Origin: a virus
DNA length: 64,000 nt
Strand: one strand, 5' to 3'
IMG/VR virus record: IMGVR_UViG_3300029634_000047
Coordinates: 1-64,000 of that record
Numbering within the stretch: the first letter of the stretch is position 1; each line of letters starts with the position of its first letter. The position numbers were made by a program, and so were the translations under genes. The notes beneath the pieces were generated by a model. It did not search any database, had not been told where the DNA came from, and saw only the letters and a list, made by a program, of their open reading frames with translations. Shown here one piece after another: positions 2,182-60,151 of this stretch.

Positions 2182-2184
2182 AAT

Positions 2185-6168: not shown

Positions 6169-6186
6169 GGGGGGGCAAGCTTGTAC

Positions 6187-7729: not shown

Positions 7730-7739
7730 AGATGGTCTT

Positions 7740-8042
7740 ATGGAAAAGAAAGAAGAAAATAATACAGAAATAAAGCAGTCATTCAACTTGTCTGCCATTG
7801 TCGGAATATGGGAAAGTCTAAATCTTCATCCTACGGTAATGATATACCAAAGTAAGAAAAAGTATCTGCTTTCGATGCTCCATGTATCGGATAACGGACA
7901 GGCGCAACCAGCCACTTATGAAATACAAAAGGAAGATAGCCGTTACTTTATCGTTTCAGTCTTTAAACAGCTTTATATCGGCTATGACAAGGTAAAAGAC
8001 AGCCTTTCCATTTCTTATTATGGCGAGTATTTGCGTAACTGA
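7740..8042 (+). CDS. hypothetical protein
   Basis: ORF from ATG at 7740 (track ORF 7677 uses TTG). Confidence 0.3.
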   Translation: MEKKEENNTEIKQSFNLSAIVGIWESLNLHPTVMIYQSKKKYLLSMLHVSDNGQAQPATYEIQKEDSRYFIVSVFKQLYIGYDKVKDSLSISYYGEYLRN

Positions 8043-8100
8043 CAGGTGATATATATCAATCATTCAAACCAATTATAAATCAATAAAACGATATAACAAT

Positions 8101-8394
8101 ATGGAACTGATAAACGGCAACAATGAGATAATTAAGGATTTCTTTCAGTCTATGGAAAGAATGTTAGAGGGTATCGGTAAACTGGCAAGGGAAAGCAGAC
8201 CGCATTTGAACGGTGAGAAGTTTCTAAGCAACCGGGAAGCATCCCAATATTTGAAAGTAAGCATCCGCACGCTGCAAGAATGGCGAGATACGGGTGTTAT
8301 CCCTTACATTCAGATAAAAGGCAAAATAATCTATCGTCAAAGCGACATAGAACGGCTTTTGCAGACCTACTATAATAAAGAACGGCAGGAATAA
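8101..8394 (+). CDS. HTH_17/excisionase-family DNA-binding protein
   Basis: FLSNREASQYLKVSIRTLQEWRDTGVIPYIQIKGKIIYRQSDIERLL. Confidence 0.55.
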   Translation: MELINGNNEIIKDFFQSMERMLEGIGKLARESRPHLNGEKFLSNREASQYLKVSIRTLQEWRDTGVIPYIQIKGKIIYRQSDIERLLQTYYNKERQE

Positions 8395-8685
8395 TCTGCT
8401 ACCCTTAAAAAACACATTTTTTTCCGAAACTGACTAAGAACATTAACTCTATCAGTGTAGTATTCCGTCGGTGCAAGCCTTTGGAAGAAAATACAACCCG
8501 GAGCGTAGCGCAGGTGTGGAGATTTTCTTTCAAACCCGTAGGGCTTGGGCTTGAACGGACGGAATACGGAGCTTACCTTTGTTAATGTTTTATTCAGCTT
8601 CGGAAAATTCCTCTTAAAAAGAAATCAAACAAAATCATATTGCACCCAATAAAATTCCGTATATTTGTTTTTAAATACTAAAATC

Positions 8686-10245: not shown

Positions 10246-10303
10246 TTCAAGAAAAAATAGGCAATCAATAGCATGGCATATAGCTATTGATTGCCCTCAT
10301 TCT

Positions 10304-11533: not shown

Positions 11534-11864
11534 AATTCTTTGATTTTTAAGTGATACAAAATTAGTTTGTTACGCTCAAAAACCAGCTACGCAAAATACT
11601 GACAATCAAAGACAAATGCGTCAATTCGTGGGAGCAAAACCGGCTTTCAAAAAGTCCCATGAATAAGCCACGTAAGGACTGCCTAAAACCGCTATTTTTT
11701 GCCGAAGCGGAGAAAAAGAAAAAGCTCTGAAATCCTTGAATTTCAGAGCTTTGCTTTAATTTGCTATTTGCTTTCGCGGTGCGTACGGAACTAACACATT
11801 TTACTATCATACTGATAATCAGTAAAATACTTGTTAAAAATATATTAATGGTATCATATTTATA

Positions 11865-14232: not shown

Positions 14233-14586
14233 ACTAACAAAACGTTCTTTGACATATTGTATAGTCTGAACAAATAAAGACTTAAAACAAGGTTTACTGC
14301 TTATCTAAAGGGCGAAATAGACCGACAAAGTAGCCAAAGCGGATTAGTGAAAAGAGTGTGAATACGGACTGCCAATAAGAAGATGCAGCACACGAATCAC
14401 TAAGTTATCAAAAACAACTTATATTATGACAAAGTAAACGTAGGGCGTTTATAAATACATTCTTAACTGAATAGATACTTTAAATGATATATATACCCGT
14501 GCTTCGCAAGAAGCGGTCACCGCTAAAAAGCTACGGCCAACAATCCATCGGAACGCGGACGGGAACACATTTTAAATGCTAAAAGT

Positions 14587-17457: not shown

Positions 17458-18069
17458 GAACAGTAACAGTTGAAGTGCCCGAAGGACACATGGTAAAAAT
17501 CGTGAAAGAAGAAAGTATGCAATCTACCCAAAAAGTTATGGGGGGGGGGTAAATTTGAGTTTGAAGGTGAGACATTCATCCCCGGTGACGTAATTATCAA
17601 TCCAAATCGCGGAGGGGGCAGCATGATGATTCTCTCTGAAATTAGAGAAGAAAGGCCGCTTCCTTTTTTACCAGCAATAAAAGTACCTTTCGGCCTTGTC
17701 GCTTATGTTCCTTCCAACGATGAAGGTGACAGAGTTTTTGTAAAACTCACACCCGAAGCTGGTATCGGAGGCATGAAGGGATTCCGTAAAGCTACAGAAG
17801 AGGAAAAGGCAAAGATGCTTGCCGCCATGAAGGAAGAAAAACATTACTCCTTCAATTTTGAGAAGTTACAGCCTGAATATATCCCGACTGTCGGCGATGT
17901 TGTTATTGTATGGGATGATAACAACAAAGAAAATGCGGTAGTCGGTATTATGAATGAAGTGGATGAAACGAGCAACCCATACAAAATAAATGATGGCACT
18001 TGGTATAAGAACTGCGACAAGTTCGTTTCAGAAAAACAATATAAAAATTTGATTGATGGGAAAGAGTAA
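17454..18069 (+). CDS. hypothetical protein interrupted at a G10 tract (17540-17549)
   Basis: ATG 17454 frame reads ...QKVMGGG* through G10; downstream frame (track ORF 17623-18069) continues; deleting one G fuses. Confidence 0.4.
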
Positions 18070-18355
18070 ATCTAAATCGGGGGGGGCGAGAAATTACACT
18101 CCCCTTCTCACAGCTCGTCCCAAAGGAATGAGCTACCAAGAGTATCGTGAACGCAGAGCCTATCAGAACGCATGGTTGAAAGAGCGACTGAAAGGCTTTA
18201 TTTGTTATGTATCGTCTGAACTGGTTGTATATGACAAAATAACGGGATTACCCCGATTATTCAATCATCGTACAGATGATATACACAAAGCAAACATAAG
18301 GACTAACCCACAGCCATTTGTCGGTTCTGCCCGATATGGCTTAAAACCGTTATGA
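18053..18355 (+). CDS. hypothetical protein (contains in-frame G8 at 18079-18086)
   Basis: ORF; overlaps previous gene by 17 nt in the +1 frame. Confidence 0.3.
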   Translation: MMGKSKSKSGGARNYTPLLTARPKGMSYQEYRERRAYQNAWLKERLKGFICYVSSELVVYDKITGLPRLFNHRTDDIHKANIRTNPQPFVGSARYGLKPL

Positions 18356-21991: not shown

Positions 21992-22264
21992 TGGAAAATT
22001 TTAAAAAATGCAGTAAATGTGGCCGGGAACTTCCGGCCAGCGAGTTTTGGAAAAATGCTTCAACCGAAGATGGATTGCAGACATATTGCAAAGAGTGCGG
22101 TAATGTTTATGCCAAAAACCGTAAGAAAACTCCGGGGGGGGGGATTGAAGAAAATATATTCCAATCCTGAATTGGCAAGATTTTCTCCACGGGAACTTAT
22201 CGCAGAATTGAAAGCGCGTGGATATACCGGAGAATTAAAATTTACCCAAACAATATCATTATAA
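21991..22264 (+). CDS. zinc-ribbon protein interrupted at a G10 tract (22134-22143)
   Basis: ATG 21991 frame: MENFKKCSKCGRELPASEF...CKECGNVYAKNRKKTPGGG then shifts; downstream frame (track 22019-22264) continues LKKIYSNPELARFSPRELIAELKARGY. Confidence 0.45.
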
Positions 22265-22803
22265 TGGAAAAGTTACGTCTATTGGTTACAACCAAATGTC
22301 CGAACAAATGTCCTATGTGTTGCAACAACTCATGGGATTTTTCAAAATTACCAGTTGTTGAGCATTTTAATTACAAAGAGATCATGATAACTGGTGGAGA
22401 GCCACTTTTGTTTCCTGAAAAACTGTCAAATTTGGCCGAAAGTATCAGAACCGTTCAGAAATTGGCCTATGGCAATAAAGGAAAATTATTTCTATATACG
22501 GCACTGGCTGATATGCTTCCCAATTATATCAGATATTTCGATGGAGTTGTTTACACTCCACATTCTGCTAATGATGTTCATAGTTTATTGAAGACCAATA
22601 ATTTTTTGTTGGACTACAAAGATGAACTTATGGAAAGTAAATCTCTTCGACTCAATCTTTTTCCTGATATTAAAAAGCATATTCCTGATAACACAAACCT
22701 TTCGTTATGGAAAGTAAAAGATATGCAATGGATCAAAGATTGCCCGGTTCCGGCGGCTGATGAAGAGTTCAAAAGAGTAGCTGAATTATGGGAGGTGGAA
22801 TGA
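22264..22803 (+). CDS. small radical SAM protein (activase/QueE-like)
   Basis: CPNKCPMC (CX3CX2C) cluster motif and ITGGEPLLF SAM-binding motif; 179 aa. Confidence 0.55.
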   Translation: MEKLRLLVTTKCPNKCPMCCNNSWDFSKLPVVEHFNYKEIMITGGEPLLFPEKLSNLAESIRTVQKLAYGNKGKLFLYTALADMLPNYIRYFDGVVYTPHSANDVHSLLKTNNFLLDYKDELMESKSLRLNLFPDIKKHIPDNTNLSLWKVKDMQWIKDCPVPAADEEFKRVAELWEVE

Positions 22804-23895
22804 TGAAAGATGTAATTACCCCCCCCCAAACATCTCTATCCGTATCGCTGGTTTTTAGAAGATACTGTTTTTACTAAAGATAAAGGAAAGGTCTTTTCTT
22901 GCTTTGCGTGTGGTGGTGGCTCTACAATGGGGTACAAGTTAGCCGGATTTGATGTAATTGGCTGCAATGAAATAGATCCCAAAATGATGAAATGCTACAT
23001 TGAAAACCATAATCCTCAATATACTTTCTTAGAAGATATTCGTGATTTAGTGAGAAGGAATAATCTTCCCGAAGAATTGTACAATTTAGATATATTGGAC
23101 GGATCACCACCTTGCAGTACATTTAGCATGTCGGGATTACGTGAAGATGCGTGGGGTAAAGAAAAGAAATTCAAGGAAGGTCAAAAGACACAAGTTTTAG
23201 ATACGCTCTTTTTTGATTTTATTGCACTTGCCAAACGCTTAAAACCTAAAGTTGTTATTGCTGAAAATGTGAAAGGACTTCTTTTAGGGAATGCGATTGA
23301 TTATGTCAGACGTATATACAAAGGCTTTGAGGAAGCTGGTTATTATTGTCAGCATTTTCTTCTTGATGCTTCTAAAATGGGAGTACCTCAAAAAAGAGAA
23401 CGTGTATTCTTTATATGTATCAGGCATGATTTGGGAGTCCATTTTCTAAAAGTTTCAGACCTCTTCAATGTTGAGCCACATATTTGTATGAAGTTTAATG
23501 AAATACCCATTTTGATGAAAGAAATAACAGACTTTAAGGGGAAAGAAATTAAAAATGGTACAAAAATTCGATATGTTTGGGAACATAGAGAAATTGCTGA
23601 TAAAGACATGTCTGATACATGTATGCGACTATACGGTAAAGAGTTATTCTTCTCAAAGAAATATATACTTGAAGATCGCATTTGCAATACGATAACTTCC
23701 AAGCATGATGATTTGGTACACTTTACACAACCTTTATATCTAAGTACATCTGAAATCTGTAAAGTATCTACTTTCCCCATCGACTATAACTTTTACAACC
23801 AATCCCCACATTATATCTGTGGAATGAGTGTACCACCCGTTATGATGGCACAAGTAGCCTCACGAGTATGGAAATATTGGTTATCTAAATTATAA
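22803..23895 (+). CDS. DNA (cytosine-5)-methyltransferase interrupted at a C9 tract (22819-22827)
   Basis: Motif I FSCFACGGGS (upstream of track ORF, other frame), motif IV PPCSTFSMSG, motif VI AENVKGLL; ATG 22803 overlaps upstream stop (TGATG); C8 would fuse. Confidence 0.8.
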
Positions 23896-25560: not shown

Positions 25561-26145
25561 ATGTCAGAACTTAAAATCACACAAGAAAAGGTTACAGCCG
25601 CTTTTAGTGAAGCAAACGACTGTCCTAAAGCAATTAGTATTCTAACAGCTTTATTCGGAAAGCAAAAGCCGGATTATACAGATTATCACAATATCAAAAC
25701 CTACGAAGATGCTTGTGAAGCAATAGGTGTAAAACCTATTGTTCGCCTACTTGTTGAAGATGAAGACGGACACAAAGAAGAAGTGGCTGATATTGCACAC
25801 CTCGCCTACATCAAACTATGCACAATTGCCCGTGCATTGAACAACGATCCTGATTTTCCACGATTTACTAAAGATGAATACCGTTATACGCCGTGGTTTT
25901 ATCTTTATAATCAGAAAGAAATTGATGAAATGGACGAAGAGGATCGTAATCGGCTGGTTCTTTGGGGCGGTAGTGCGTATAACGGTGCGAGTTGCGGCCT
26001 CGCTTCTGCGAACTCGAGTATCGCTTGGTCGTGCTCGGCTGCGCATGTCGGCTCTCGCCTTGCTGTAAAATCAAGTGAAATCGCAATTTACTTTGGAGAA
26101 CAATTCAAAGAATTATGGAAAGACTTTCTGATTGGAAAAAAGTAA
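25561..26145 (+). CDS. DGR target protein 2 (small, VR2 near C-terminus)
   Basis: C-terminal LVLWGGSAYNGASCGLASANSSIAWSCSAAHVGSRLA encoded by VR2. Confidence 0.6.
   Translation: MSELKITQEKVTAAFSEANDCPKAISILTALFGKQKPDYTDYHNIKTYEDACEAIGVKPIVRLLVEDEDGHKEEVADIAHLAYIKLCTIARALNNDPDFPRFTKDEYRYTPWFYLYNQKEIDEMDEEDRNRLVLWGGSAYNGASCGLASANSSIAWSCSAAHVGSRLAVKSSEIAIYFGEQFKELWKDFLIGKK
25953..26059 (+). repeat. DGR variable repeat VR2
   Basis: About 107 bp homologous to TR; all 17 mismatches lie at TR adenines. Confidence 0.8.
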
Positions 26146-27008: not shown

Positions 27009-27863
27009 ATGAAAATATTAGTAAGTTTTTCAGGTGGTAAGGATTCACAAGCATGTTTGATCCAAGCCTTCAAACAATATGGGGGGGGGGGGAATTTAAC
27101 CGCTGTGTTTTGTGACACCGGTTGGGAACACCCTGACACATATAAACATGTGAATGATGTTTGTCTGCAAATGGGAGTAAAACTTATAACTCTCAAATCA
27201 AAATACGATTTTGTGTCTTTAGCAGCTCATAAGAAAAGATTTCCTTCCACGAATGCACGGTTTTGTACCAGTGAACTAAAAATGAAGCCAATGATTGATT
27301 ATGTACTTTCTTTGAAAGAAAGCTGCATTATCATACAAGGTATCAGAGCCGGAGAAAGTACAGCACGTGCGGCAATGGAAGAGGAATGTATGTACTTTAA
27401 ATCGTATTTTCAACCTAATAAAAAAGGAAGAACTGAAAATTACCGAAGTAAAGATGTCAAAGAATGGTGTTCCCAATATGACGCCTCTGTTCTAAGGCCA
27501 ATCTTTAAATGGAGTGCGCAGCAAGTTATAGATTGCATACTGGATGCAGGGCAGGAACCGAATCCATTGTATTATCGCGGATTCTCACGTGTTGGATGTT
27601 TCCCATGTATTATGTGTCGGCACAAAGAAATTGAACTTATAGCCAAAAATGATCCTGAAATGTGTCAACGTCTGATTCAAGCAGAGAAAAGCGTAGGACA
27701 TTCCTTCTTCCCTCCATCATACATACCTCAAAGATTTTGTAAGAACAAACAATATCCTTATGTAGAGGAAGTTTTGGAATATGTTAAAGAACATACCCCT
27801 GATATGTTCGAGCCAGAAGGTGGATATGCCTGCATGAGTCTGTTCCATGGGTTATGCGAATAA
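27009..27863 (+). CDS. PAPS-reductase-family/PP-loop ATP pyrophosphatase (DndC/phage PAPS reductase-like); contains in-frame G12 (27081-27092)
   Basis: SFSGGKDS PP-loop, C-terminal CxxC cysteines. Confidence 0.65.
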   Translation: MKILVSFSGGKDSQACLIQAFKQYGGGGNLTAVFCDTGWEHPDTYKHVNDVCLQMGVKLITLKSKYDFVSLAAHKKRFPSTNARFCTSELKMKPMIDYVLSLKESCIIIQGIRAGESTARAAMEEECMYFKSYFQPNKKGRTENYRSKDVKEWCSQYDASVLRPIFKWSAQQVIDCILDAGQEPNPLYYRGFSRVGCFPCIMCRHKEIELIAKNDPEMCQRLIQAEKSVGHSFFPPSYIPQRFCKNKQYPYVEEVLEYVKEHTPDMFEPEGGYACMSLFHGLCE

Positions 27864-28729: not shown

Positions 28730-29399
28730 ATGCCAATAAGTGAAGTTTATAATATGGATTGCATGGAATATATGAAAAATATTCCTGATAAGTTCTTTGA
28801 TTTAGCGATAGTCGATCCCCAGTATGGCATAGACATAATGCATAAAGGTGGGATGCCGAAGCATTTAGGCTTTAAACAATATAAAAGAAAAGATTGGGAT
28901 AAGTCCCCCCCCCGGAAAGAAATATTTTGAGGAACTATTCAGGGTATCGAAGAATCAAATAATTTTTGGTGGTAACTACTTTACTACCTATCTTCCTCCC
29001 AAAATGGGGTGGATTGTTTGGGATAAAGGACAACATGGATTAACTATGTCTGATGGTGAATTGGCATGGAGTAGTTTTGACAAGGCTCTTCGGATCATAA
29101 CTCTAAACCGGTGTACAATTGGAGAACGAGGTGGAAATATCCATCGTTGTCAGAAGCCAGTGAAATTATATGCTGAAATATTAAGAAAAAACGCCAAAGA
29201 GGGAGACAAAATTTTTGATAGTCATTTAGGTTCAGGAAGCAGCAGAATAGCTGCTTATGGACTTGGATTCGATTTCTATGCAACCGAAATAGATGAAGAA
29301 TACTTTGAAGCACAAGAAGAACGTTTTCACCGGGAATGTTTTGGGGAGATAAAAACAGAGAGAGGAACATTGGTTCAAACTAATTTATTTGATAAATAG
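28730..29399 (+). CDS. DNA N6-adenine methyltransferase interrupted at a C9 tract (28905-28913)
   Basis: N-part DLAIVDPQYG (motif IV-like); middle KNQIIFGGNYF and C-part HRCQKPVKLY...DSHLGSGSS in the other frame; C8 would fuse. Confidence 0.7.
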
Positions 29400-29401: not shown

Positions 29402-29749
29402 ATGAAGCAGACATTAGAAGAAGCCGTAAATGAAATTGGAGGTGTACATCCTGACTGGGATAAAATAACTTGTTTTAGAATAGGATTTAAAGAAGGAGCC
29501 AGATGGCAAACAAAACAACCTCCGTGGGTATCAGTGAAAGAACGGTTGCCGAATGAAAATGAAGACATTATCATTCTATGTAAACATGGTGCGATTTTTA
29601 ACGGTACATATAGCAACAATGTATGGTTCTGCATGGATGGTTATATCCATGATATGTACAAAGGTAATCCGATTTACTCTTCAATGAGCAGCATACCTTC
29701 ATCATGGGAACCGATAGCATGGATGCCAAGACCTAAATTTGAAGAATAA
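29402..29749 (+). CDS. hypothetical protein
   Basis: ORF. Confidence 0.3.
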   Translation: MKQTLEEAVNEIGGVHPDWDKITCFRIGFKEGARWQTKQPPWVSVKERLPNENEDIIILCKHGAIFNGTYSNNVWFCMDGYIHDMYKGNPIYSSMSSIPSSWEPIAWMPRPKFEE

Positions 29750-30667
29750 TGAATATCGGAATTTTAGCCGTTGACAGCAATTTCCCCAATTTAGCACTTA
29801 TGAAAATCAGTGCTTACCATAAAGCAAGAGGCGATCAAGTGGAATGGTATAATCCCCTATGTGAATACGACAAAGTATATACAGCTAAAGTATTCACTTT
29901 CACACCTGACTATAACTATTATATCAATGCCAACCAAATAGAAAAAGGTGGTACCGGATATGATATTGAAAAAGTTCTTCCAGTTGAGGTTGATCGTCTT
30001 CAACCTGATTATTCTATCTACAATATTGACTCCAATTTGTCCTATGGGTTTCTGACACGTGGTTGTCCCAATCGGTGTAAGTGGTGTGTTGTTCCTAAAA
30101 AAGAAGGGAAAAATCTCACCTTATATGGATATTGAGGAAATAACAGCTGGACGGAAGAAAGCTATCCTTATGGATAATAATATACTGGCCTCAAACTATG
30201 GCTTGCAGCAAATAGAAAAAATCATCAAACTGGGTGTCAAAGTGGATTTTAATCAAGGACTGGATGCCCGCTTAATCACGGATGAAATTGCCCGACTACT
30301 TGCAAAAGTAAAATGGATTAAACGTATTCGCTTTGGATGCGATACGCCGGGACAAATTGCAGAAGTTGAACGTGCTTCCGCTTTGATAGACAAGTATGGA
30401 TATAAAGGGGAATATTTCTTGTATTGCATCCTTATGGACTTTAAAGAATCGTTTGCGCGTGTCAACTACTGGAAATCTAAAAGCCGCCGTTTTCTCCCAC
30501 ACTGTCAACCCTTTCGTGATCTGAACAATCCACACCAAATTATTCCACAGTGGCAGAAAGACATGGCACATTGGGCTGATAGGAAGGAAATATACATGAG
30601 TTGCGACTTCAAAGACTTTTCACCAAGAAAAGGATTTTTATGCAAGGAATACTTTAAAATATTGTGA
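29749..30667 (+). CDS. radical SAM protein with B12-binding-like N-terminal domain, split near 30095-30110 (A5/A6 runs)
   Basis: GCPNRCKWC (CX3CX2C); track ORFs 29749-30135 and 30059-30667 overlap in the +1 frame. Confidence 0.4.
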
Positions 30668-30668: not shown

Positions 30669-30905
30669 ATGAAATTAAACAAAAAGACAGAGCGACTTAT
30701 TAAACGTAAAGCCGCTGAACTTAAAAAATTATACGAAACTCCTAATCCCGAAGTAGATAAAATTATTTCTGAATTGAGAGCAGAAGCAACGAAACGTCCA
30801 CAGAACATGAGTAAGGAAGAAGAGATTGCTTATATTCTGAAAAAGGCTGATGAAAATTGCGATCATATAGAAATTCGTAAAATCCTAAATGAAAGTAATA
30901 CATGA
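30669..30905 (+). CDS. hypothetical protein
   Basis: ORF. Confidence 0.3.
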   Translation: MKLNKKTERLIKRKAAELKKLYETPNPEVDKIISELRAEATKRPQNMSKEEEIAYILKKADENCDHIEIRKILNESNT

Positions 30906-31393
30906 ATACATCTTTTGAACGATCTGCAAACGCTTCCGATGAATGGTACACACCACGAGAAATCATTGAAGCATTAGGCGAATTTGACCTTGATCCATGT
31001 GCTCCCATGCACCCTCTTTGGCCTACTGCAAAAATCATGTACAACAAGCAGGACAATGGTCTTATACAAAATTGGGGGGGGCGAATTTGGCTTAACCCTC
31101 CGTACTCCAAACCGCTTATATGGCAGTTTGTAGAAAAATTGGCAGAACACGGCAACGGTATAGCACTACTTTTTAACCGGTGTGACAGCAATAAGTTTCA
31201 AGACATCATCTTCACGAAAGCAACCGGTATGATGTTTTTGAGGAATCGAATAAAATTCTTCCGTCCCGATGGAACACGTGGGGACAGCCCCGGTTGTGGA
31301 AGTGTTCTTATTGCATTTGGCCGGGAAAATGCCGAAATTTTAAGGAATTGCTCTTTACAAGGCAAATATGTTGAACTTAACAATGATAAATGA
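30902..31393 (+). CDS. phage Dam-type DNA N6-adenine methyltransferase
   Basis: SDEWYTPREIIEALGEFDLDPCA and WLNPPYS (NPPY) motifs; in-frame G8 at 31074-31081. Confidence 0.7.
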   Translation: MNTSFERSANASDEWYTPREIIEALGEFDLDPCAPMHPLWPTAKIMYNKQDNGLIQNWGGRIWLNPPYSKPLIWQFVEKLAEHGNGIALLFNRCDSNKFQDIIFTKATGMMFLRNRIKFFRPDGTRGDSPGCGSVLIAFGRENAEILRNCSLQGKYVELNNDK

Positions 31394-34806: not shown

Positions 34807-35346
34807 ATGGAAAGAAAAATAAGTGATATAAAAGACAAAAAGTTGAAAGCTGAAAATATCACATTGGCAGCAATATATAACATATTGTTCACCAATGATA
34901 TAGTTTGCTCCTTAATTGTAGAAATGTTAAGTGCATTACGCAAATCAGGGCTTTGTCGTTTCCGCGTAAAGCAGCAAGGAAATAAACTGGAACAGTTGAT
35001 GCTTCAATATGAAAAGAAAATCAATAAAATAGCCGGAAACCGGGCTTTTTTCATGGCTGATGCCAACCAATATGTTGCAGATGAAATACAACCTGATTTG
35101 CTTAAAATGGAATACTCCATTAAAATGGAGTTTGATAAATGCCGAATTGAGAACAGTGCCTTACTTGCCAAAGTAGAACTTACAAGATGTATGGCAGAGC
35201 TTGCTTGCCTATCCCTTGACAAACGGATAGAAGAAGTCCGTCCATATAATAAAGAAGTAACCGGAATAACATATCTCCGGCTCACTGACGCATTTAAAGT
35301 ACTGGATGAACTTTCTGATATTTTATATAAGGGGGGGGTACTGTGA
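34807..35346 (+). CDS. hypothetical protein ending right after a G8 tract (35331-35338)
   Basis: Removing one G would extend the ORF ~45 codons. Confidence 0.3.
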   Translation: MERKISDIKDKKLKAENITLAAIYNILFTNDIVCSLIVEMLSALRKSGLCRFRVKQQGNKLEQLMLQYEKKINKIAGNRAFFMADANQYVADEIQPDLLKMEYSIKMEFDKCRIENSALLAKVELTRCMAELACLSLDKRIEEVRPYNKEVTGITYLRLTDAFKVLDELSDILYKGGVL

Positions 35347-40151: not shown

Positions 40152-41695
40152 TTATTCTTCAAAATAATAAGCACTCTTCCCGTCACCTAACGAACGCCGC
40201 TTGACAATCACATTTTCCACTGGAAAAATCTTCTGACCGTTATTCTCCGCTTCGCGAGCCTGGTCCAACACATCTTTCAGATTGTAACAGTTCGTTATGA
40301 ATTTGCTACGTTGTCCGTTCTGTTCAAAAAGAACACAATATCTACCTTCACCTTGCTTTGTCTTCACATTCGTTTCAAAGTCCACCACTGTTATAGGGAC
40401 ATTGAGAATATCCATCAATCTTGTCTCTTTTACATCGAAGAACTTCTTTCCGTCCTTTGTTCTACCACTCTGTTTGATACCTTTATCTGCAAAACTCATA
40501 TCATTATTTGTTATTGTTCTCCATAAATTCTTACAATCTCCCCACTTACACCAGCCCCAGTATGAAGCTCGTATCTCGCGGTTACGTTTCCGGCTTTTTA
40601 TTCGTTTCACCTTTCGGGCAAAGTTCTTTTTCATATTTTTACGCATCCGAACATTATCTTTCGTGAAGCAATAGCCCAAAAAGTTAATCCTTCTTCCTCT
40701 TACTACGTTTTCGCTTTCTATGCTTTTTGTTCCCATTTTTTGTTTCTGTTCCTATCGGAGCAATACAACTGTTTGCTTTAACTACCAACCCAACTTTTGC
40801 ACTTTCCCGTTCATACGCACGAATAAGAAACAACGCTTCGGCCTTAGAACGAGCCAGCATAACATTATCATCGCAATATCTATGCAGGCATTTGACACGA
40901 TATTTCTCCTTCATTGTATGATCTATCCGGCTTGCCGCAAAATTCCCGATAGGTTGGCTTGTAAATGCTCCAATCGGAACACCTCTTCTTCCGTTCAACT
41001 TCATTCTCCAATACGTCAACTAACTCTGTTCCGCTGTCATACGATAAAACAGCTATCTCGATCAATTTAATAAATCGTTCATCTTTGAATTTCCTTCTCA
41101 ATGCAGCAACAATAAGCTCATGAAGAATACTTTGATAGAACTTTTTGAAATCAGTCTTTACGAACCATTTGTATTCCGGGTACCGGTGAAGAAAACGTTT
41201 CATTCTCCTTACTCCAAAATGTAATCCCTTTCCCTTGATACACGCACTTGTATCATAAATCAAATTTCTATAAACATCTTCTTCAATCACCCTCATAATT
41301 GCATGGTGCAATATACGCCACGGGAAATATTTCTGTTTGACAATATCTCGAACCTTTCCTGCATCACTTTTTACTCTCATTACGCTATAATCCGGTGCCG
41401 GAAAATCCAATGTCAGGATCATCAACTGCAAAGCTCGGAGGTCTTCTTCCGGGTGTAGATTATGCCGCCTGATAAAGCGGTTTTTCTTAACCTTCCCATC
41501 TTGTGCTTCTTTGTCCGCTTCACGTAAATTATTTATCTCTGCTATACGTTCAAGAATATACCCGGCTCTTTTAGATTTCTTTCCACCGTTTGCTTCTATC
41601 CGTTTATTGTCAGCCTCTATCCTTTCCGCTATAATTCTATCAATTTCATTATGCGATAGACTCTTCCAATCAATATCACTTCTTCCAATATTCAC
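40152..41695 (-). CDS. DGR reverse transcriptase, read through three ORFs (40880-41695, 40684-41019, 40152-40736)
   Basis: SACIKGKGLHFG, WFVKTDFKKFYQSI (motif A), GVPIGAFTSQPIGNF (motif B), RYCDDNVML (YxDD), INFLGYCF; each junction repaired by deleting one base. Confidence 0.75.
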
Positions 41696-41980
41696 TGCTG
41701 CTTTGTTTTAAAATTTACACCATACTTCCAATTTTGTCTTGTTCAGACTATTTTAATTATTCCGATAACTGCAAGCTGTTTTTACTTGCTTGAATAATTC
41801 GCCCGGAGCTTTCGAGAACCAACCTACTAACACCGCTTGTTGCCTTTCGCAAATTGGGCAACCTTTCCGCATTCTTGATTTTCTGACATCGTAACCAATT
41901 GATTACTACGTTGCAACGATATAAATCCTGCAAGGTCATGGCTCGGAGAACTCGCAGATTACTCTACGATAAATAAGTAT

Positions 41981-42089
41981 GGCGAGAGCCGATATTCGCA
42001 TTCGAGTTCGACCAATCGTTATTCGAGTTCGCATAAGCGAGGCCGCAATTCGCACCGTTATTCGCATTACCGCCCCAAAGAACCAGCTC
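41981..42089 (-). repeat. DGR template repeat (TR); startless cassette encoding ...LVLWGGNANNGANCGLAYANSNNDWSNSNANIGSR
   Basis: AAY-codon rich, no start codon, bounded by stop upstream; mismatches to both VRs only at its adenines. Confidence 0.85.
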
Positions 42090-42211: not shown

Positions 42212-43531
42212 TTATGCAGCCATCAAAGATGCACCGCTAACAAATGTTAAATTCCCAAAATACGCAAGGCGAGAGCCGAAAGACGCATGCGAGGACGACC
42301 AAGCGTAACCCGAGTACGCACAAGCGAGGCCGCAATACGCACCGTCATTCGCAGAACCGCCCCAAAGAACCAGCTGCCCAGTAGTGTTTGCCCATGAATA
42401 ATCAGCCCAATAAGAAGTGCTGTTTCCACCAATCTTTTTCGGGAAAATATCAAAATGCTCCCCAAGAATTATTTCCTGCACTTGACCGGAAGCTGTCTGA
42501 CGGGTAGCTTGTCTGTATTCACCATTTGGATGCGCAGCTAATTCAGCAGTAGTCGGTAAACGGTTTCCTTTGTAAATGAAAATTTCCGTTCCACTTTGAG
42601 CACTATTGTTGGAACTACCGCAAAATACTCCTTGCAGAAATTCCCACTGCCACCCATAAGGATCTTCTATACCCATCATGTTCACCCGTGAACAATCCAC
42701 TCCAGTATTACTTCCATTCACCACAGAAATAGCTATTTTGCCCCAATTGTCACCGAGACTCTTTGTTGCGCCAGTTTGCAATGCTGCCGCAGCAGCCCAC
42801 AAGTCTTTACTGGAGCTACCACCCACACCATAACCAAGTTTGGCTTGAATATTGGTATCTCCGTACTGGGACAGCCCCAACATCATAATAAGCTTTCTCT
42901 GATCGTAATCGGTCAGTCCCCATTCCTTACCGTTCACTTGTGCAGCATTCCAAAATGCGTTGATTGTCTTGCTGCCTGCCGGTGCAACTCCTGAACGTGA
43001 AACAAGTGCGCTACCTGACATGGAGCCTTTGTATGCACCGATACAGTTATACATTCCACCATTTGCCCCACCAATAAACTCACCGCCAATAGGTAGCATC
43101 GAGAGCCATAAGACTGGTACACCACTTACACTGTCAGTCTGTACACGATAATACAAACGTGGCCCTATCCACATCACATGCCCTTTGGTTTCATCCACCG
43201 CAGTACCATCAGCAAACACCGCACTATTGGTAGGGGACATTTTAGCAGCCCTTCCATCATTCGTTACGAGATAACGGCCACAATACAACTTGTATTCTGT
43301 CCATGCGGCTGTATTACCTATCACACCATAGTTCGTGCTACTTTGGGTTGATTGTTTGATTGGAATCCCCCAAGCCACCTGCCTCAACATTTGTTCGTCA
43401 CCATTATTAATAGCATTCATGAAGTTTTCCACGGTAATGCGTCTGACACTACCACCAACTTCCACCAATACTGTATTGGAACGCAGAATGGAGGTCACCA
43501 ATGTTTCATTTCCTAATCCTTTAGTTGCCAT
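42212..43531 (-). CDS. DGR target protein 1 (tail-fiber/receptor-binding-like, VR1 at C-terminus)
   Basis: C-terminal LVLWGGSANDGAYCGLACAYSGYAWSSSHASFGSRLA encoded by VR1; located in tail module. Confidence 0.7.
   Translation of the reverse strand: MATKGLGNETLVTSILRSNTVLVEVGGSVRRITVENFMNAINNGDEQMLRQVAWGIPIKQSTQSSTNYGVIGNTAAWTEYKLYCGRYLVTNDGRAAKMSPTNSAVFADGTAVDETKGHVMWIGPRLYYRVQTDSVSGVPVLWLSMLPIGGEFIGGANGGMYNCIGAYKGSMSGSALVSRSGVAPAGSKTINAFWNAAQVNGKEWGLTDYDQRKLIMMLGLSQYGDTNIQAKLGYGVGGSSSKDLWAAAAALQTGATKSLGDNWGKIAISVVNGSNTGVDCSRVNMMGIEDPYGWQWEFLQGVFCGSSNNSAQSGTEIFIYKGNRLPTTAELAAHPNGEYRQATRQTASGQVQEIILGEHFDIFPKKIGGNSTSYWADYSWANTTGQLVLWGGSANDGAYCGLACAYSGYAWSSSHASFGSRLAYFGNLTFVSGASLMAA
42268..42376 (-). 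repeat. DGR variable repeat VR1
   Basis: 19 mismatches to TR, all at TR adenines. Confidence 0.85.
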
Positions 43532-53404: not shown

Positions 53405-53917
53405 TTAGTCCACATTCATTTTATATCTTACCATGACATTGCCATCGGCTTCAACTTTACAGTTTTTGCCATGAACATATACATAAACTTTAGCCATATC
53501 GCTTTGCCTTACATGTAGTATAGCCCGATCATATACACTCACAAAAACTTTGGCACAATCCTCCACTTCAAGAGTCAATTCACTATCATGCCGCAAATGG
53601 AGAGTAGCGGCTGCAAATTTGCTGAAAGAAAATTTGCCTGAACATTTACCGTTCAGCACATATACACCGTTGTCACCTCCGGTCACTGGTTCATCAACAA
53701 AAATATGGTTTTGATGGAGCAGACTCCGGTCAAAATTACCTTTTATATATTCCACTGTCGGATAATCGTGCTCAATACAAAAATCAATGCCTCGTATATA
53801 CATTTCAATTAGTTCTTGCTGGCTTTTATTGTTTTGCCAGTCACCTTGCCATTGTGTGCAGAGGCCATACGATACGGCATGACCTCTCAATTCACTATTC
53901 AATCTGTTCATAATCAT
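53405..53917 (-). CDS. hypothetical protein
   Basis: ORF downstream of tape measure. Confidence 0.3.
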   Translation of the reverse strand: MIMNRLNSELRGHAVSYGLCTQWQGDWQNNKSQQELIEMYIRGIDFCIEHDYPTVEYIKGNFDRSLLHQNHIFVDEPVTGGDNGVYVLNGKCSGKFSFSKFAAATLHLRHDSELTLEVEDCAKVFVSVYDRAILHVRQSDMAKVYVYVHGKNCKVEADGNVMVRYKMNVD

Positions 53918-56900
53918 ACATTAAACTTGTTTACACCGTTTATATTCCTATGCAGTATATCTCTGATCTCTTCCACAAATTCCACATTCTTTGCTGTATT
54001 TATCTGTATCATTGTCAGTTGTCGCAATTGTGCTTGTGCTATTACATTATAGGCCGGGAACAATTCTTCAACCAATCTGCGTACATACTCCCGTTTGACA
54101 CTCACGTCAGCCCGGATTGCATTTATATAAGAAGCCAAAAGGTTAGCGGTATTTTCAGTAACATTCTGTATGCCTTTAGATAACCCACTTCCATTTTCTT
54201 CTTCCCCTTCTTTCATGCTGATACCATATTTCTTTTCCATATAGTTGTTCAGCTTGTCAAGCATGGAATAGTAATCATCGGTTTTCTCACTCACTCCCAT
54301 TAGATAGTCCGCAATACTTTCCAACTCCCTTTCGTCAAGGGAGAAATCCTTGCCGAAATAACCACTCATTCCATCCTCACCGAAAAGCATCTTCTGAAGC
54401 TGTTGCATGGCCGGTTCCAAAATACTTATTTTGAGAATGGAGTTCATGACATCACCCATAATGTCGGCAACCTTATTTTTGAAAGCTTCGGCACCATCCT
54501 CGCCTTTCTGCCATGCCTCATACAAGGCATCTCCCAACTGCGAAGCCCAGTCTTTCAAATTAATGCCATAGAGAGATTCAGCCGTTTCCTCGGCAAAATC
54601 CTTTATTTGCTGTTTCATCTCCGCAATCTGATTCTCATAATCAGCTACCTTGCTATCATCCGTCTTCTTTTTATCAATTTCAGCTTGCCGTTGTTTCTCC
54701 AACTCTGAAAGTTGTTCTTGCATCAAGGCACGTTGATATCCGTATGCACCACCTTCATCGTATGCCGAAACACGTTTTTGAAGTTTTTCCGCTTCCTGCT
54801 TATATTTCTGCAAAGACATCAAATCGAAGATGTTGATCTTTCCCTTATTGCGTATTGCCTCAATCTGATTATTTAATTGATTCAACCGGGTACGGTCATT
54901 TTCTGCATCTACAAGTTTTAGTTCCGTGCCACTGCCCAAGAAACGTTCAAGAATACCGTCAATTTGTTCGTATATATATTGCAACTGTTGAGCACGAAGT
55001 TTACTCTTTTCAATAGCCTTATCGAGTTTCTTATCATGCGCTTGTGCTATCTTCCCAATCCAGTTTACAGCTTCACCGGCAGCGGCAGCAATACCACCAA
55101 CTATTCCACCTTTGGCAAATCCCTGCCCGATATTGCTTATAGAAGACATGGCATCCTGCACATTGCCCATCGTGTCGGCCATGCCCTCATTGCCCAAAGC
55201 ATCGAACATGGAGGACATTTGCCCTGCAAAATTGCCGACAAGATCAGCGCTTTCAGCGGCACTTTCTCCCAACCGTCCGATTTTCTTTTCCAGTTTGTCG
55301 CTGTCTTTTTCAGAAGTAAAAAGTTCTTTTACATTCTTCGCTAAGGTTTTGAATGGATTTACAGCCAATTGTGCATCTTGCAACTGGGGGATAGCTTTTA
55401 TCAATTTATCCAACAAAGAATAAGCCCCCTTAACATTTTCAATACTACCATCATCTTTCGTGAAAAAAGAAGTAAATCCATTAGGCTTTCCATCGCTATC
55501 ATAGGAAACCTTTGCATTATTCTTGATTTCCCTTGCGATACGTTCAGCCTCTTTCAAATCAGAGAATGAACGTTGCTCTTTATCTCCAAATATTTTCTCC
55601 CATTCAGGTAACAATTGTAATAAGGTCGATTTTAATTCAATCAGCTTCTTATTATATTCATCAAGATAAGCCTTCTGAACATTGTTTAGACCTGACGTAT
55701 CACCAACCAACTCCCCATTTTTTCCGACACTTAATCCAGTCTTTGATGCGTACTGTTCACTTAATATTCGTATCTTTTCTATCGTTGATCTTGCATTGGC
55801 AATAACCTTTGTATCATCAAGTGCAATACTTACCTTATCTTTCTCAAATGCCTCTTTAGCATCCTTCCACACCTTAAAAAATTGCTTATATAATGGGCTG
55901 TCTTTACCTCCTAATATACTTTCTGCTTCATCGTCACTCAAAGTGAATGGAAGATCAACACCCTTTTCTTTGAGTTTCTTTTGTACTGTATCTATTAAAT
56001 ATTGCGCTTCATTCTCATAATCAGTCAAAAAACCAAAAGCATAAGTTGAAGCATCCTTCTTACTTGCACCGGCATTGATAAGCTGCTTGTATATATCCCA
56101 TTTCTTTGAAACATCAGATACGTACCTTTCAAGTTCTTTTGTAGCCTTATCCGAAGCTTCTTTCATAGCATTGGCATCAATATCTAAAAGAACTTTCCGT
56201 ATAGAAACTTTCAATTCCCTACGCTCTTTGGTCTTATCGTCAAGCTGGTTAAGAATCTTATTCAATTCATCCCGATAATTGGAAATATCCACTGGTTCCT
56301 TACCTTTGAATAAGGAGTCAAAAATACCTGATCCTTTAACCTTATTGGCAGCTTCTCCCTTTCCAACAATGTCAGTCCACTTCTTATATTCAGAATATGC
56401 CTCCTTTAGTAAGTTTACCCGTTCTTTCAATTTTTCGGCGAAGGCATCCTTTTTGCTCTTATCCTTACTTGAATCAGTGAGAGAAAAACCGATTCCTTTG
56501 GCTCCTTTCTCGCCGGCTTGCATTATGTCGAAAGCCTTTTTATAATCTGATACAATTTGCTTCTGCCAATCAGGAATCTTTGATAAGTCAATGGTTCCAA
56601 TATCTGATAAATCTATTCCGGCCTTAATCAATATCGGCTTCAATTGATTTGTTGTCTCTTTCGCTTCCTTGTACGCTTTTTGTATTCCTTCAATGATTTT
56701 CTCTGAATCTGTGGAAACCTTTATTTGGGCTTCAAATTGCCCATCTGTAGCTTCATTGAACTTTTTCTGCAAATCAGAAAAACTTTGACTGGTTTCTGTA
56801 TATTCAGCATTAATTTTGATATTGAACTCTTCTTCAAGAGTCTTCTCGTTAAAGAAGTCTCGCATATATTTCGGCATCTTCTCGAACGTATCAAAGAAAG

Positions 56901-59391
56901 AACTTATATCCAAACCGATAGCTATTTTCTGCGCATCACTCAAATTGTCCAAATCCCAGCCGGCAGCTTCCAGTCTCGACTTGTACCCAGATAGGAAGTC
57001 CTTCATATCCGGCAATACATCTTCCATATAAATACGCTTAGAATTTTTCCACGCTTTCCGCAATTGAAAAATATCATCCCTATATCCTCCCGTGAAGGGT
57101 AACTCATTATTCAAACTGGCTAATGCCTTGGGATATTCTTTGATTATATCCAACTGCTCTTTCAATGATTTGCCCGAAGCGACCTTAGCAAAATCATCAT
57201 ACTTGGCTATAACTTTCTGCATGGCAGTATAATACTCTATATAGCTACCAGCCATACGGTCTATAATCTTGTCTATCTGCTTCTCTGCCTTGATGTAGTC
57301 TTCAATATTTTCACTAAAGCTTTCATCAAAATAACCATCAGTAGCATCATTCGCATATTCAGATGTACCTCTTATGGCATTCAACAATCTATAAGCCTCT
57401 TTTGTATCATTCAAAGCATCCCGAAGCAATATATATTGTTCTGCAAGACTTTTAACTGTGTTTCCTTCATCATCAGTCTTAAACGTTTCATTAAAAGTAT
57501 CTGCCCAAACCGGAGAATAATCCTTTAATGCTGTTTTCATTTTTTCAATGGAAGAAATCAGTGAGGCATCATTCGCCTTAAAAGGATCAACATCAGCAAA
57601 TTTTTGAGCTTCTTTCGTTAAATTCTTGAAACCGTCTTGTGCTCTCGTTGTCAACTCGGAAATACGCTCGTTCATTTCGTCAGCCTTTTGCCCGGACTTA
57701 TACCATAATTCAGCGATGGCAGTAAGCCCAGTGAACAAAAGCATGTATGGATTAAAAAGCAAACCTTTTAATGCAACTCCTACTTGTTTTATACCATAAC
57801 CCAATGAGATCATGGCTACACGCCATTTACTTGTTGAAAGTGCAGCTGACATTTCAGCACGAGATATACCAAGTACCTGCACAATATGGCCGGCTTGTCC
57901 TGATTTCAATTTTCCAAGTGCCATTAACCGCAAGGCATACTCCTTAGTTAAAGCTCCACTACTTGCCAACGCTTTCCAATCTGCGGTTGTCATAGTATTA
58001 CTTGAAGCTATAAGTCCTTTTTCCGCATTTGTAAGTGTACGATAACTGGATGCGACAACAAGATTGGCTGCTGCCTTTTGCTTGGCAGCAAGCGTACTTT
58101 TTATAAGAGCTGCACTTTCATTCCCAATCAAGCGGTTTGCACCAAATGTCGCTACCTTATATACTCCAAAGGCTCCAATGGCAGCTTCGATAGCCGGTAC
58201 AACTTCTTTCCAATTTTGTGCAATGGTGGTAAGGCTTTCAGCAGTCCATTTCAATGTACTACCCATTGACTCCGCAATATCACCAAGCATAATGTCAATC
58301 GCATCAGCCAAGTTCTTCCATTTGGATTTGACTGATTCAGAAAGAACTTCTTGCATGTTATTAAACATGCCGCCATCATCCGTAAGTTCCCAAAGAACAT
58401 CTTTTACGTCCTCAAACGTAACCTTCTTTTTCGAGATCATATCAAGCACTTCACCGGCACTGACAATACGGCCTTCCAACTTACTGAATCGTTCAGCCAG
58501 TTTATCCACCATAGGAATGTTCGCTTCCGTTAATTGTCTTAATTCCGTACCCTTCAAAAATTTAGCAGCCTTTATCTGACCGTAAGCCAATATGATACGC
58601 CCCATATCAACACCTACACCGGCTGATATATCAGCCAGCCTTTTCATGGTATCATACAATTCATTGTATGGTATAGAATATGCGGAAAGTTGCTTGGCAT
58701 ACTGATTCAAATCCATAATCCCGAATGGAGAAGCAACAGCCAGTTTCTTAATTTGATTGAATATGGTTGTAGCTTTGCCTTCATCTTGCAGAATAGAGGC
58801 CATTGCAATTTTCTGATTTTCCAACTCACCACCAATATCAACCACTGCACGCAAAAAGTTCTGTGCTGCATAAATGGAGTATAGCCCCAAAAATTCATTT
58901 CTTAATTGTCCGACAATACTCAATTGACTGTTCATTGCTCCATTCATATTGAGAGTGGCTGTCATGTGCCGTCTTGCTGCATTGGCTGATCTCTCACGGG
59001 CATTAGCCAAATCCAGTTCCGCTTTGGCGGCACGGGCGGCTCTTTGTCGCGCAAGCTCACGTGCGGCTGCGGCAGAAGCTTCCGCTTTGGTTTGAATGGC
59101 TGCGGCTTTGGCGGCGCGTAAATCACTTGCTGTAAAGTTTGTATTCAACCCGGCGGCTTGCAAGGCGGCACGAACAGCTTGTGTGGTACTGGCCTTATCC
59201 ACTACCACATTGATCTTAAACTTCTCACTTTGAAGCAAAGTCTTCATATCACCAACCAACTTCTTCTTGTCAAAACCCACATCAAGTTTTGCCTGCAAGT
59301 CTTTGGTGATTTCCGCTTTCAATTTTTTACGTTGTTCCGCTGTCTTATCACGGAACAGTATATCAAAATATAAATTACCGAGATCAGCCAT
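53914..59391 (-). CDS. tail tape measure protein (1825 aa)
   Basis: Very long Ala/Lys/Glu-rich coiled coil with TP901-type core. Confidence 0.7.
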   Translation of the reverse strand: MADLGNLYFDILFRDKTAEQRKKLKAEITKDLQAKLDVGFDKKKLVGDMKTLLQSEKFKINVVVDKASTTQAVRAALQAAGLNTNFTASDLRAAKAAAIQTKAEASAAAARELARQRAARAAKAELDLANARERSANAARRHMTATLNMNGAMNSQLSIVGQLRNEFLGLYSIYAAQNFLRAVVDIGGELENQKIAMASILQDEGKATTIFNQIKKLAVASPFGIMDLNQYAKQLSAYSIPYNELYDTMKRLADISAGVGVDMGRIILAYGQIKAAKFLKGTELRQLTEANIPMVDKLAERFSKLEGRIVSAGEVLDMISKKKVTFEDVKDVLWELTDDGGMFNNMQEVLSESVKSKWKNLADAIDIMLGDIAESMGSTLKWTAESLTTIAQNWKEVVPAIEAAIGAFGVYKVATFGANRLIGNESAALIKSTLAAKQKAAANLVVASSYRTLTNAEKGLIASSNTMTTADWKALASSGALTKEYALRLMALGKLKSGQAGHIVQVLGISRAEMSAALSTSKWRVAMISLGYGIKQVGVALKGLLFNPYMLLFTGLTAIAELWYKSGQKADEMNERISELTTRAQDGFKNLTKEAQKFADVDPFKANDASLISSIEKMKTALKDYSPVWADTFNETFKTDDEGNTVKSLAEQYILLRDALNDTKEAYRLLNAIRGTSEYANDATDGYFDESFSENIEDYIKAEKQIDKIIDRMAGSYIEYYTAMQKVIAKYDDFAKVASGKSLKEQLDIIKEYPKALASLNNELPFTGGYRDDIFQLRKAWKNSKRIYMEDVLPDMKDFLSGYKSRLEAAGWDLDNLSDAQKIAIGLDISSFFDTFEKMPKYMRDFFNEKTLEEEFNIKINAEYTETSQSFSDLQKKFNEATDGQFEAQIKVSTDSEKIIEGIQKAYKEAKETTNQLKPILIKAGIDLSDIGTIDLSKIPDWQKQIVSDYKKAFDIMQAGEKGAKGIGFSLTDSSKDKSKKDAFAEKLKERVNLLKEAYSEYKKWTDIVGKGEAANKVKGSGIFDSLFKGKEPVDISNYRDELNKILNQLDDKTKERRELKVSIRKVLLDIDANAMKEASDKATKELERYVSDVSKKWDIYKQLINAGASKKDASTYAFGFLTDYENEAQYLIDTVQKKLKEKGVDLPFTLSDDEAESILGGKDSPLYKQFFKVWKDAKEAFEKDKVSIALDDTKVIANARSTIEKIRILSEQYASKTGLSVGKNGELVGDTSGLNNVQKAYLDEYNKKLIELKSTLLQLLPEWEKIFGDKEQRSFSDLKEAERIAREIKNNAKVSYDSDGKPNGFTSFFTKDDGSIENVKGAYSLLDKLIKAIPQLQDAQLAVNPFKTLAKNVKELFTSEKDSDKLEKKIGRLGESAAESADLVGNFAGQMSSMFDALGNEGMADTMGNVQDAMSSISNIGQGFAKGGIVGGIAAAAGEAVNWIGKIAQAHDKKLDKAIEKSKLRAQQLQYIYEQIDGILERFLGSGTELKLVDAENDRTRLNQLNNQIEAIRNKGKINIFDLMSLQKYKQEAEKLQKRVSAYDEGGAYGYQRALMQEQLSELEKQRQAEIDKKKTDDSKVADYENQIAEMKQQIKDFAEETAESLYGINLKDWASQLGDALYEAWQKGEDGAEAFKNKVADIMGDVMNSILKISILEPAMQQLQKMLFGEDGMSGYFGKDFSLDERELESIADYLMGVSEKTDDYYSMLDKLNNYMEKKYGISMKEGEEENGSGLSKGIQNVTENTANLLASYINAIRADVSVKREYVRRLVEELFPAYNVIAQAQLRQLTMIQINTAKNVEFVEEIRDILHRNINGVNKFNV

Positions 59392-59408: not shown

Positions 59409-60151
59409 CTACTTATAATCATTGATGTTAATTACCGTTTCTCCATCACCGTATTTGTCTTTCCAGCGTTTAGCGGCATCCTCTATTTCGCTTACGGAAG
59501 GGGATTTGAAGTTCTTTGTATCGTGTTCCTTTTCCTTACTGTCCTTGTCATAATCTGTAACCACAATAGACACATCCATTGCCAACAGTTCTATTTGGGC
59601 ATTTGTAAGAACCCAATAAATACCAAACAAAGGCTTACTTATTGGAATCCCCAATAGTCTCAAAGGCTCTGTCAACCACGGATAGGATTTGCCTATTTCC
59701 CACGTTTGTCCGTAGCTGGTTCGTGAAGGATATGCTCTGCTTCCTCTTTTGTCATTGTCATCATCGTGTCCTTCATCGCGGTCAGATATATGGTAGCTGT
59801 CAAGTAATCTTCCACTGGAATTTTTTTTTTGCCGACAGCTATAACCTTCATCAGTTCATGATCTCCATATTGTTTGATATAAAAGAACCAACGCCACAAA
59901 AAAGGATAGAAGAACTTAATCTTCCAATACCCATTCAAAATGATAGCGGCTGCACATTGACAACTGATCTTATCATCATTTCCTGATTTCTGCATGGTAC
60001 TGGTGAATTTGCGTATAGTCCCTCTTTTCAGCCACGAAATGCCATATTTCTTTCCCCGAACTTCCACATAATCCACACTGTCTTCCATCACATCATTCAA
60101 TAATTTTTCATCCTCCGGCTTAGGAAGTGTTATATTATTTTCTTTTGTCAT
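59409..60151 (-). CDS. tail assembly chaperone pair (G-like 59693-60151; T-like frame open 59409-59855) with -1 slippery A10
   Basis: Two ORFs upstream of TMP; -1 frame open across coding-strand A10 (59821-59830). Confidence 0.45.

Follow-up and report, generated by a model that had tools for sequence, protein, structure and literature searches.

Positions 28730..29399 of the sequence studied here, on the plus strand, hold a gene for a beta-class N6/N4 DNA methyltransferase that is interrupted within its coding region by a run of nine cytosines and is out of frame as a result. We propose that this poly-C tract is a slipped-strand contingency locus by which phage DNA modification is turned on and off, a reading which the sequence comparisons lead us to hold with a probability of about 70%. 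The sequence is positions 1-64,000 of the virus record IMGVR_UViG_3300029634_000047, called 'the window' below, and all coordinates refer to it. From 11771 to 64000 the window is 95-99% identical to LoVEphage (MW660583, OY731433, OY725593, OY731444), to Bacteroides phage BI-TP1 and to Phocaeicola phage PV4-TP1; judged by this identity, the window from 11771 on is a LoVEphage-type temperate Bacteroides prophage, and the methyltransferase gene sits in its plus-strand early, replication and modification module.

The nine cytosines (C9, at 28905..28913, plus strand) split one methyltransferase gene between frames 2 and 3. Frame 2 gives an N-terminal fragment of 66 amino acids as an open reading frame (ORF) at 28730..28930 (plus strand), which starts with the ATG at 28730, ends ...DKSPPRKEIF before a TGA stop, and contains the catalytic motif IV, DPQY (28814..28825, plus strand, residues 29-32). 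Frame 3 is open over 28869..29399 (plus strand), with its first ATG only at 29004, and encodes the C-terminal two thirds of the enzyme, with KNQIIFGGNYF, HRCQKPV and the S-adenosylmethionine (AdoMet)-binding motif I, FDSHLGSGSS (29214..29243, plus strand, residues 162-171). The two open stretches overlap at 28869-28930, tract included. With eight or eleven cytosines they become a single ORF of 222 or 223 amino acids, reading ...DKSPPGKKYFEELF..., in which C8 forms Ser-Pro-Pro at codons 59-61; C9 or C6 leaves products of 66 or 65 amino acids, and C7 or C10 products of 76 or 77. A contingency locus is expected to have a homopolymer of at least about 7 nt inside an ORF, with one length in three in frame, and C9 is such a homopolymer. 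An earlier note, made from the sequence alone, had put the DPQY-containing N-terminus in frame 2 and the KNQIIFGGNYF and HRCQKPV motifs of the C-terminus in frame 3, with the switch exactly in C9 and C8 as the repair. Its coordinates and frames proved correct throughout, and the 222-residue ORF obtained at C8 is colinear with orthologues. Minus-strand ORFs within 28730-29399 are unsupported, the substitution pattern matching the plus-strand frames.

Once repaired to C8, the protein scored 45.3 bits against Pfam PF01555 (N6_N4_Mtase; gathering cut-off 26.7), the C-terminal fragment alone matching profile positions 154-219, and it matched PHROG 23224/67 'DNA methyltransferase' (E 1e-33) and PADLOC MTase_II (E 5e-33). 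Both halves of the repaired protein align to the N6-methyladenine (m6A) enzymes CcrM (6pbd) and M.MboIIA (1g60), with DPQY opposite the DPPY of both (the second Pro being Gln here) and FDSHLGSGSS opposite their motif I (DPFFGVGTT in CcrM, DCFMGSGTT in M.MboIIA). Motif IV precedes motif I, which is the beta-class order, and on these matches the product is a beta-class amino-methyltransferase of the PF01555 family. That family also includes N4-cytosine enzymes. The closest solved structures are m6A enzymes (CcrM, M.MboIIA and DpnA, E 8e-9 to 1e-5), with N4-cytosine enzymes reaching only E ~0.07, and the predicted target modification is probably N6-methyladenine. The earlier note had called the product an N6-adenine methyltransferase; the assignment to the amino-methyltransferases of PF01555 stands, whereas its N6-adenine part is only likely, from the m6A structure matches. 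No restriction gene adjoins the methyltransferase gene, whose neighbours are a 115-amino-acid hypothetical gene and a DUF551 gene. We also considered filing it with the phasevarions and rejected this, because Type III and Type I partners (res, hsdS/hsdR) are missing among the neighbours and the best PADLOC models are those of Type II and orphan methyltransferases; by homology and gene context it is an orphan, Type-II-like methyltransferase.

Two intact orthologues show what the gene looks like without the tract: gp90 of BI-TP1 (XPO94747; 669 bp, 91% DNA identity) and gp59 of BF486P1, an unrelated outgroup phage (WAX06759; 79% DNA identity). Each is the same gene and occupies the same place in a LoVEphage-type genome, and their proteins are colinear with the C8 form; they differ from the window gene in having no homopolymer and in being constitutively in frame. 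The site reads AAACCACCT in BI-TP1 (AAG AAA CCA CCT GG, encoding KKPP), a form common to five LoVEphage-type IMG/VR contigs, and AAGCCACCC in BF486P1 (AAG AAG CCA CCC GA), while tract alleles have TCCCCCCCC (AAG TCC CCC CCC GG). Because the tract-less orthologues carry AAACCACCT or AAGCCACCC at the site, the tract is the derived state. It differs from AAACCACCT by five substitutions towards C within 9 bases, and CCC is the Pro codon that the prophage genes use least. The gene as a whole is absent from OY731433, MW660583 and PV4-TP1.

Copies of the tract were found by scanning for its exact flanks with a free spacer, which yielded 59: 23 IMG/VR contigs, 2 genomes (B. oleiciplenus YIT 12058 and one Bacteroides metagenome-assembled genome), 31 metagenome contigs, the window and phage records. 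Some of these contigs are possibly duplicated between collections, and since OY725593 and OY731444 are both among the 59 there is at least one duplicate, so that these two are not treated as independent. The spacer was pure C in every copy, never interrupted, and its length was C6 in 1, C7 in 11, C8 in 22, C9 in 23 and C10 in 2. The earlier note had proposed a comparison of homologous genes in related prophages, and the comparison thus returned a tract that varies from C6 to C10, with C8 and C9 at about the same frequency. Among the 47 copies with complete flanks there were 24 flank haplotypes (661 nt), and all five haplotypes that were sampled more than once carried two or three different tract lengths. 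Because identical flank haplotypes carry several lengths, tract length changes much faster than point substitutions accumulate. Contigs from the same metagenome with differing tract lengths were also tried as a view of heterogeneity within a sample; they were uninformative, the contigs belonging to different strains (94-96% identity).

Homopolymers are error-prone, and the C9 of the window might be a sequencing or assembly error over a true sequence that is uniformly C8, the more so as a radical SAM gene of the window also has a single-base frameshift, near 30108-30113, which is absent from all relatives. Yet an independent, Illumina-based phage record has the same C9, as do 20 further contigs, and C7, C8, C9 and C10 all recur across collections. 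A longer run served as a control: the T10 at 59821-59830 was T10 in 13 of 13 IMG/VR contigs (Fisher p = 7e-4 vs the C tract), which indicates that assemblies of this collection do not mis-size homopolymers at random, although the control run is itself under selection as a tail-chaperone shift site. We therefore regard a uniform C8 disguised by error as very improbable. Artefact is unlikely as an account of the phenomenon as a whole, though it may still account for the window's own C9 call.

Read in the C8 frame, the gene shows a ratio of nonsynonymous to synonymous substitution rates (dN/dS) of ~0.05 between tract alleles, 0.08 against BI-TP1 and 0.03 against BF486P1, and setting the tract to C8 restores an ORF of at least 221 amino acids in 36 of the 47 copies that reach the stop codon. 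Some 63% of copies are nevertheless out of frame despite this strong purifying selection on the protein. Low dN/dS combined with a majority of out-of-frame copies is characteristic of a contingency locus and not of a decaying pseudogene. If instead the gene were dispensable and decaying into a pseudogene as its prophage degrades, with the tract as a mutational weak point that has no adaptive role, several other observations would fit: the in-frame fraction is about one third, as under random drift; the window prophage has further lesions, namely the radical SAM frameshift, a gene cut short at 34807-35346 and tracts in the OFF state at 17540, 22134 and 22819; three LoVEphage genomes do without the beta-class gene; and a C9 phage was recovered by induction (OY725593), so that the gene is not essential. 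Besides the low dN/dS and the intact ORFs after tract repair, what speaks against such drift is that the tract was built from AAACCACCT by five substitutions, towards the rarest Pro codon, and that seven genes carry such a device, with DNA-modification genes over-represented among them. We consider decay unlikely; on the substitution pattern, the beta-class gene is maintained under purifying selection and is not decaying. One tract allele that looked old and divergent (L025, dS 0.72) was rejected as such, being a recombinant whose 5' half is the common haplotype.

It might also be that the C9 form is itself expressed, by a +1 ribosomal frameshift on CCC-C or by slippage of RNA polymerase, in which case C9 would count as ON, whether fully working or at a low level, and not as OFF. 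No length is commoner than C9 (23 of 59), and a +1 shift in the overlap of the two frames would yield the full protein. CCC-N sites readily undergo +1 shifts with tRNA-Pro, and translational frameshifting is also used by some phase-variable genes with poly-C runs, H. pylori futC among them. Against this, transcriptional slippage is best documented for A/T runs, the CGG codon that follows the tract is not rare (12% of Arg codons), and C8 is equally common and is the form colinear with the tract-less orthologues. Programmed recoding further calls for a slippery run of fixed, conserved length. The tract, at C6-C10, is not of this kind, but the prophage does have a run that is: the A10 at 59830-59821 (minus strand), invariant in all 13 contigs. 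It lies in a 152-amino-acid ORF (60151..59693, minus strand) just upstream of the tape measure gene (59391..53914, minus strand), in the context GGC AAA AAA AAA ATT, and the -1 frame is open for ~140 codons, to just before the tape-measure start; from this arrangement, it is the probable programmed -1 ribosomal frameshift site of a tail-assembly chaperone pair (G/GT type). Because the length of the C tract is not fixed, unlike that of the A10 site, recoding is not its conserved design. As the explanation of the C9 form we find it improbable, though it may be a source of leaky expression from C9.

Under the proposed switch, DNA polymerase would slip on the C run during prophage or phage replication and add or remove one C. 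C8 (or C11) would then give the full enzyme of 222 residues (223 at C11), whereas at C9, C7, C10 and C6 translation would end at 65-77 residues, before the target-recognition region and the AdoMet motif, and no enzyme would be made; the C9 of the window would be the gene in its OFF state. With several such switches acting independently, a phage population would come to hold many combinations of DNA-modification states. This could amount to bet-hedging, in that methylation would guard against the restriction-modification systems of some hosts and elsewhere would expose the phage to methylation-dependent restriction or impose a cost on the lysogen.

Several observations weigh against a switch of this kind or limit how far it can be taken. 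The in-frame fraction (22/59) is no different from the one third that unselected drift in length would give, and thus no directional selection for ON is seen in the 59 copies. Eleven of the 47 copies carry further insertions or deletions at short A, T or G runs, or a deletion, several of these being very-low-coverage contigs. All tract alleles have the local sequence in common, as though the tract arose once and recombination then spread it, for which reason we make no claim that the tract has been maintained since ancient times. OY725593 and OY731444 are identical over 28 kb, all tract lengths included, so the tracts are not so unstable that each isolate differs. The length data compare assembled copies with one another, the C9 of the window being an assembly call; heterogeneity and reversibility within a clone are what the proposed switch would predict. 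The catalytic motif is DPQY where the canonical form is DPPY, and activity is predicted; BF486P1 and one tract-bearing allele have DPPY. Finally, reviews describe phase variation in Bacteroides and in Bacteroidales generally as invertase-based, and switching by simple repeats is not established there.

The methyltransferase tract is one of a set. The window contains 18 8-mers of C or G, in 8 separate tracts, against 0.44 expected, and none of 100 dinucleotide-preserving shuffles reached 18. All eight tracts of 8 or more lie within 17.5-35.4 kb, and none falls in the structural module at 36-64 kb. Seven are conserved and vary in length among relatives with their flanks conserved; three of the seven are in methyltransferase genes (p = 0.03) and four of the seven in DNA-modification genes (p = 0.01).

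The earlier note had pointed to a second methyltransferase, of a different class, with its own C9, and this gene was recovered as a C5-cytosine DNA methyltransferase at 22788..23895 (plus strand), OFF here. Its C9 tract (22819..22827, plus strand) occupies codons 11-13, upstream of motif I. Repaired to C8 the gene encodes 368 amino acids and matches PF00145 at 157 bits over profile positions 2-321, whereas C9 leads to a stop. The full-length form is annotated as a 1107-bp coding sequence (CDS) in OY725593. The true start is 22788; motif I (FACGGGS) comes after the tract and before the ATG that ORF finders choose, at 22927. Among 40 copies the tract ranged over C7-C11 and was in frame in 11.

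The third methyltransferase is a Dam-like N6-adenine enzyme (30902..31393, plus strand; PF05869), in frame and thus ON here, with a poly-G tract, G8, at 31074..31081 (plus strand), just upstream of the NPPY motif. This tract ranged over G6-G10 in 58 copies; the gene is given as two CDS in OY731433, MW660583 and PV4-TP1 and is truncated in BI-TP1. Eight of the 58 copies carry a synonymous interruption, GGGGAGGG, in place of G8 and in frame. Judging from its sequence, this interruption should stabilise the in-frame state, as selection for a fixed ON would yield.

The fourth DNA-modification gene (27009..27863, plus strand; PF01507), also ON here, encodes a PAPS-reductase-like PP-loop protein resembling SspD, BrxP and DndC (PADLOC E 2e-22, 2e-16 and 5e-8, respectively). 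Its poly-G tract, G12 at 27081..27092 (plus strand), lies downstream of the SGGKDS PP-loop motif and ranged over G8-G12 in 42 copies. We asked whether this tract could be made harmless by starts in three frames and rejected the idea: SGGKDS is upstream of the tract, and the starts annotated at the tract are gene-caller artefacts.

Three more poly-G tracts, all on the plus strand and each in a small early gene, complete the conserved set. G10 at 17540..17549 splits a 204-amino-acid hypothetical gene that is a single ORF at G9 in BI-TP1 and OY725593. G8 at 18079..18086 lies near the 5' end of a 100-amino-acid hypothetical gene (18053-18355) and is G7-G11 among relatives. G10 at 22134..22143 is in a small zinc-ribbon gene, out of frame here, whose PHROG matches are to endonuclease VII, HNH and Lar-like restriction alleviation proteins. 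The G8 at 35331-35338 was rejected as a conserved tract, since 22 of 24 relatives have AGGGAGGG there and the run is a private mutation of the window.

The contigs combine ON and OFF states freely, the extremes being all three methyltransferases ON and all OFF; in the window the C5 and beta-class genes are OFF, and the Dam-like and SspD-like genes ON. A wider reading is that the prophage has a 'phage phasome', in which at least seven hypermutable G/C tracts in early genes would give each burst or lysogen population a combinatorial mixture of modification and counter-defence states and so help the phage past the restriction barriers of hosts. It would include three orphan methyltransferases of different classes, the SspD/DndC-like gene and the Lar/HNH-like gene. 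We offer this reading tentatively and would put it at somewhat below even odds.

Public annotations of LoVEphage genomes present the tract genes as two fragments or as genes started at downstream ATGs, and so misdescribe them. Examples among relatives are the C5 gene begun at the ATG equivalent to 22927, which leaves out motif I, and the PAPS-reductase gene begun at an ATG that overlaps the tract.

A few other features of the prophage stand apart from the conserved tracts. The private extra G at 35331-35338 truncates the ORF 34807-35346, a gene of 221 amino acids in relatives. The radical SAM gene (29749-30667) is a single 918-bp CDS in all relatives and two ORFs here, through a 1-nt insertion at a short GGG/AAAAA run near 30108-30113, which could reflect an inactivating mutation private to the window or else an error of assembly. 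In OY731433 the variable segment that replaces the beta-class methyltransferase region bears a '5S ribosomal RNA' annotation (14450-14555, by barrnap), probably a false call.

The prophage also has a diversity-generating retroelement. Its reverse transcriptase ORF (40880-41695) is on the minus strand. The repeat at 41971-42088 behaves as the template, with adenines at the variable columns on that strand, and a first variable repeat (42258-42375) is at the 3' end of the gene 42212-43531 (minus strand). A second variable repeat, remote and inverted (25953-26064), forms the 3' end of the ORF 25561-26145 (plus strand), in the early region among the tract genes. These two are the only repeats of the template, and the retroelement thus has two targets. 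Because four of the five tract-building substitutions in the beta-class gene fall at adenines, a retroelement origin of the C tract was considered; it was rejected, as template copies occur only at these two places, neither of them within 28730-29399.

Positions 1-11770 are host or other mobile-element DNA. This flank has genes for an aldo-keto reductase and an AraC-type regulator, and copies of the neighbourhood elsewhere also carry RteC, HTH_17 and MobC-like genes, a gene content that points to a mobilisable element of Bacteroidales. Just outside the LoVEphage match that starts at 11771 there is an integrase-sized ORF (10304-11533, minus strand), and a T8G7 run occurs at 6161-6175.

LoVEphage is among the most prevalent temperate phages of the human gut, occurring in ~8% of viromes from the human gut (PMC12629997), and its host range in Bacteroides and Phocaeicola is unusually broad. 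With the tracts switching in the way proposed, a highly prevalent gut phage would vary its epigenetic coat stochastically. This could help to account for the ability of a single phage species to lysogenise several species of Bacteroides and Phocaeicola, diverse as their restriction systems are; subclones of a lysogen may then differ in their methylome. Were the wider phasome to prove real, it would be the first simple-repeat phase-variation system described in Bacteroidales biology, beside the phage's two-target retroelement. Because gene callers split the tract genes, phage methyltransferases are under-counted in annotations. The switch itself is directly testable, because LoVEphage-type phages can now be induced in culture.

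We saw homopolymer tracts, frameshifts or phase variation mentioned nowhere in the LoVEphage papers, and in the full-text literature, of which our coverage was incomplete, we found no prior description of homopolymer switches in Bacteroides phages or of phase-variable methyltransferases in LoVEphage. Related systems are known elsewhere. Phase-variable methyltransferases of bacteria include those of the Type III mod genes of Haemophilus, Neisseria and Helicobacter and the poly-G Type IIG gene cj0031 of Campylobacter (PMC4889913; reviewed in PMC11868660). As in the window gene, a repeat inside the ORF slips, one length in three is in frame, and methylation is ON or OFF; phasevarions, however, are chromosomal restriction-modification genes of repeat-switching bacteria, whereas the window gene is an orphan in a temperate phage of Bacteroidales. 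Among phages, those of Campylobacter are described as having hypermutable polyG tracts in phage genes that were experimentally shown to be contingency loci (PMID 34107245, cited in PMC12823448). They resemble LoVEphage in that several G/C tracts of varying length inside phage genes bring phenotypic diversity to the phage population, but their tracts are in receptor-binding and structural genes, the phages are virulent, and the host also uses polyG switching; LoVEphage tracts, in contrast, are all in the early region and mainly in DNA-modification genes. The closest functional analogue is agt (alpha-glucosyltransferase) of coliphage T2, where a homopolymer in a phage DNA-modification gene toggles modification: in a 2025 preprint on T2 and T4, an A run in this DNA-glucosylation gene reverted ~1000 times faster than a point mutant, and the agt states, each favoured by a different host defence, trade off TgvAB against McrA/BC (bioRxiv 10.1101/2025.10.21.683753). 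In T2 the runs are of A, the phage is virulent and the switching was shown experimentally; in LoVEphage they are C/G runs of 8-12, spread over three methyltransferase classes of a temperate Bacteroides phage, and the evidence is comparative only.

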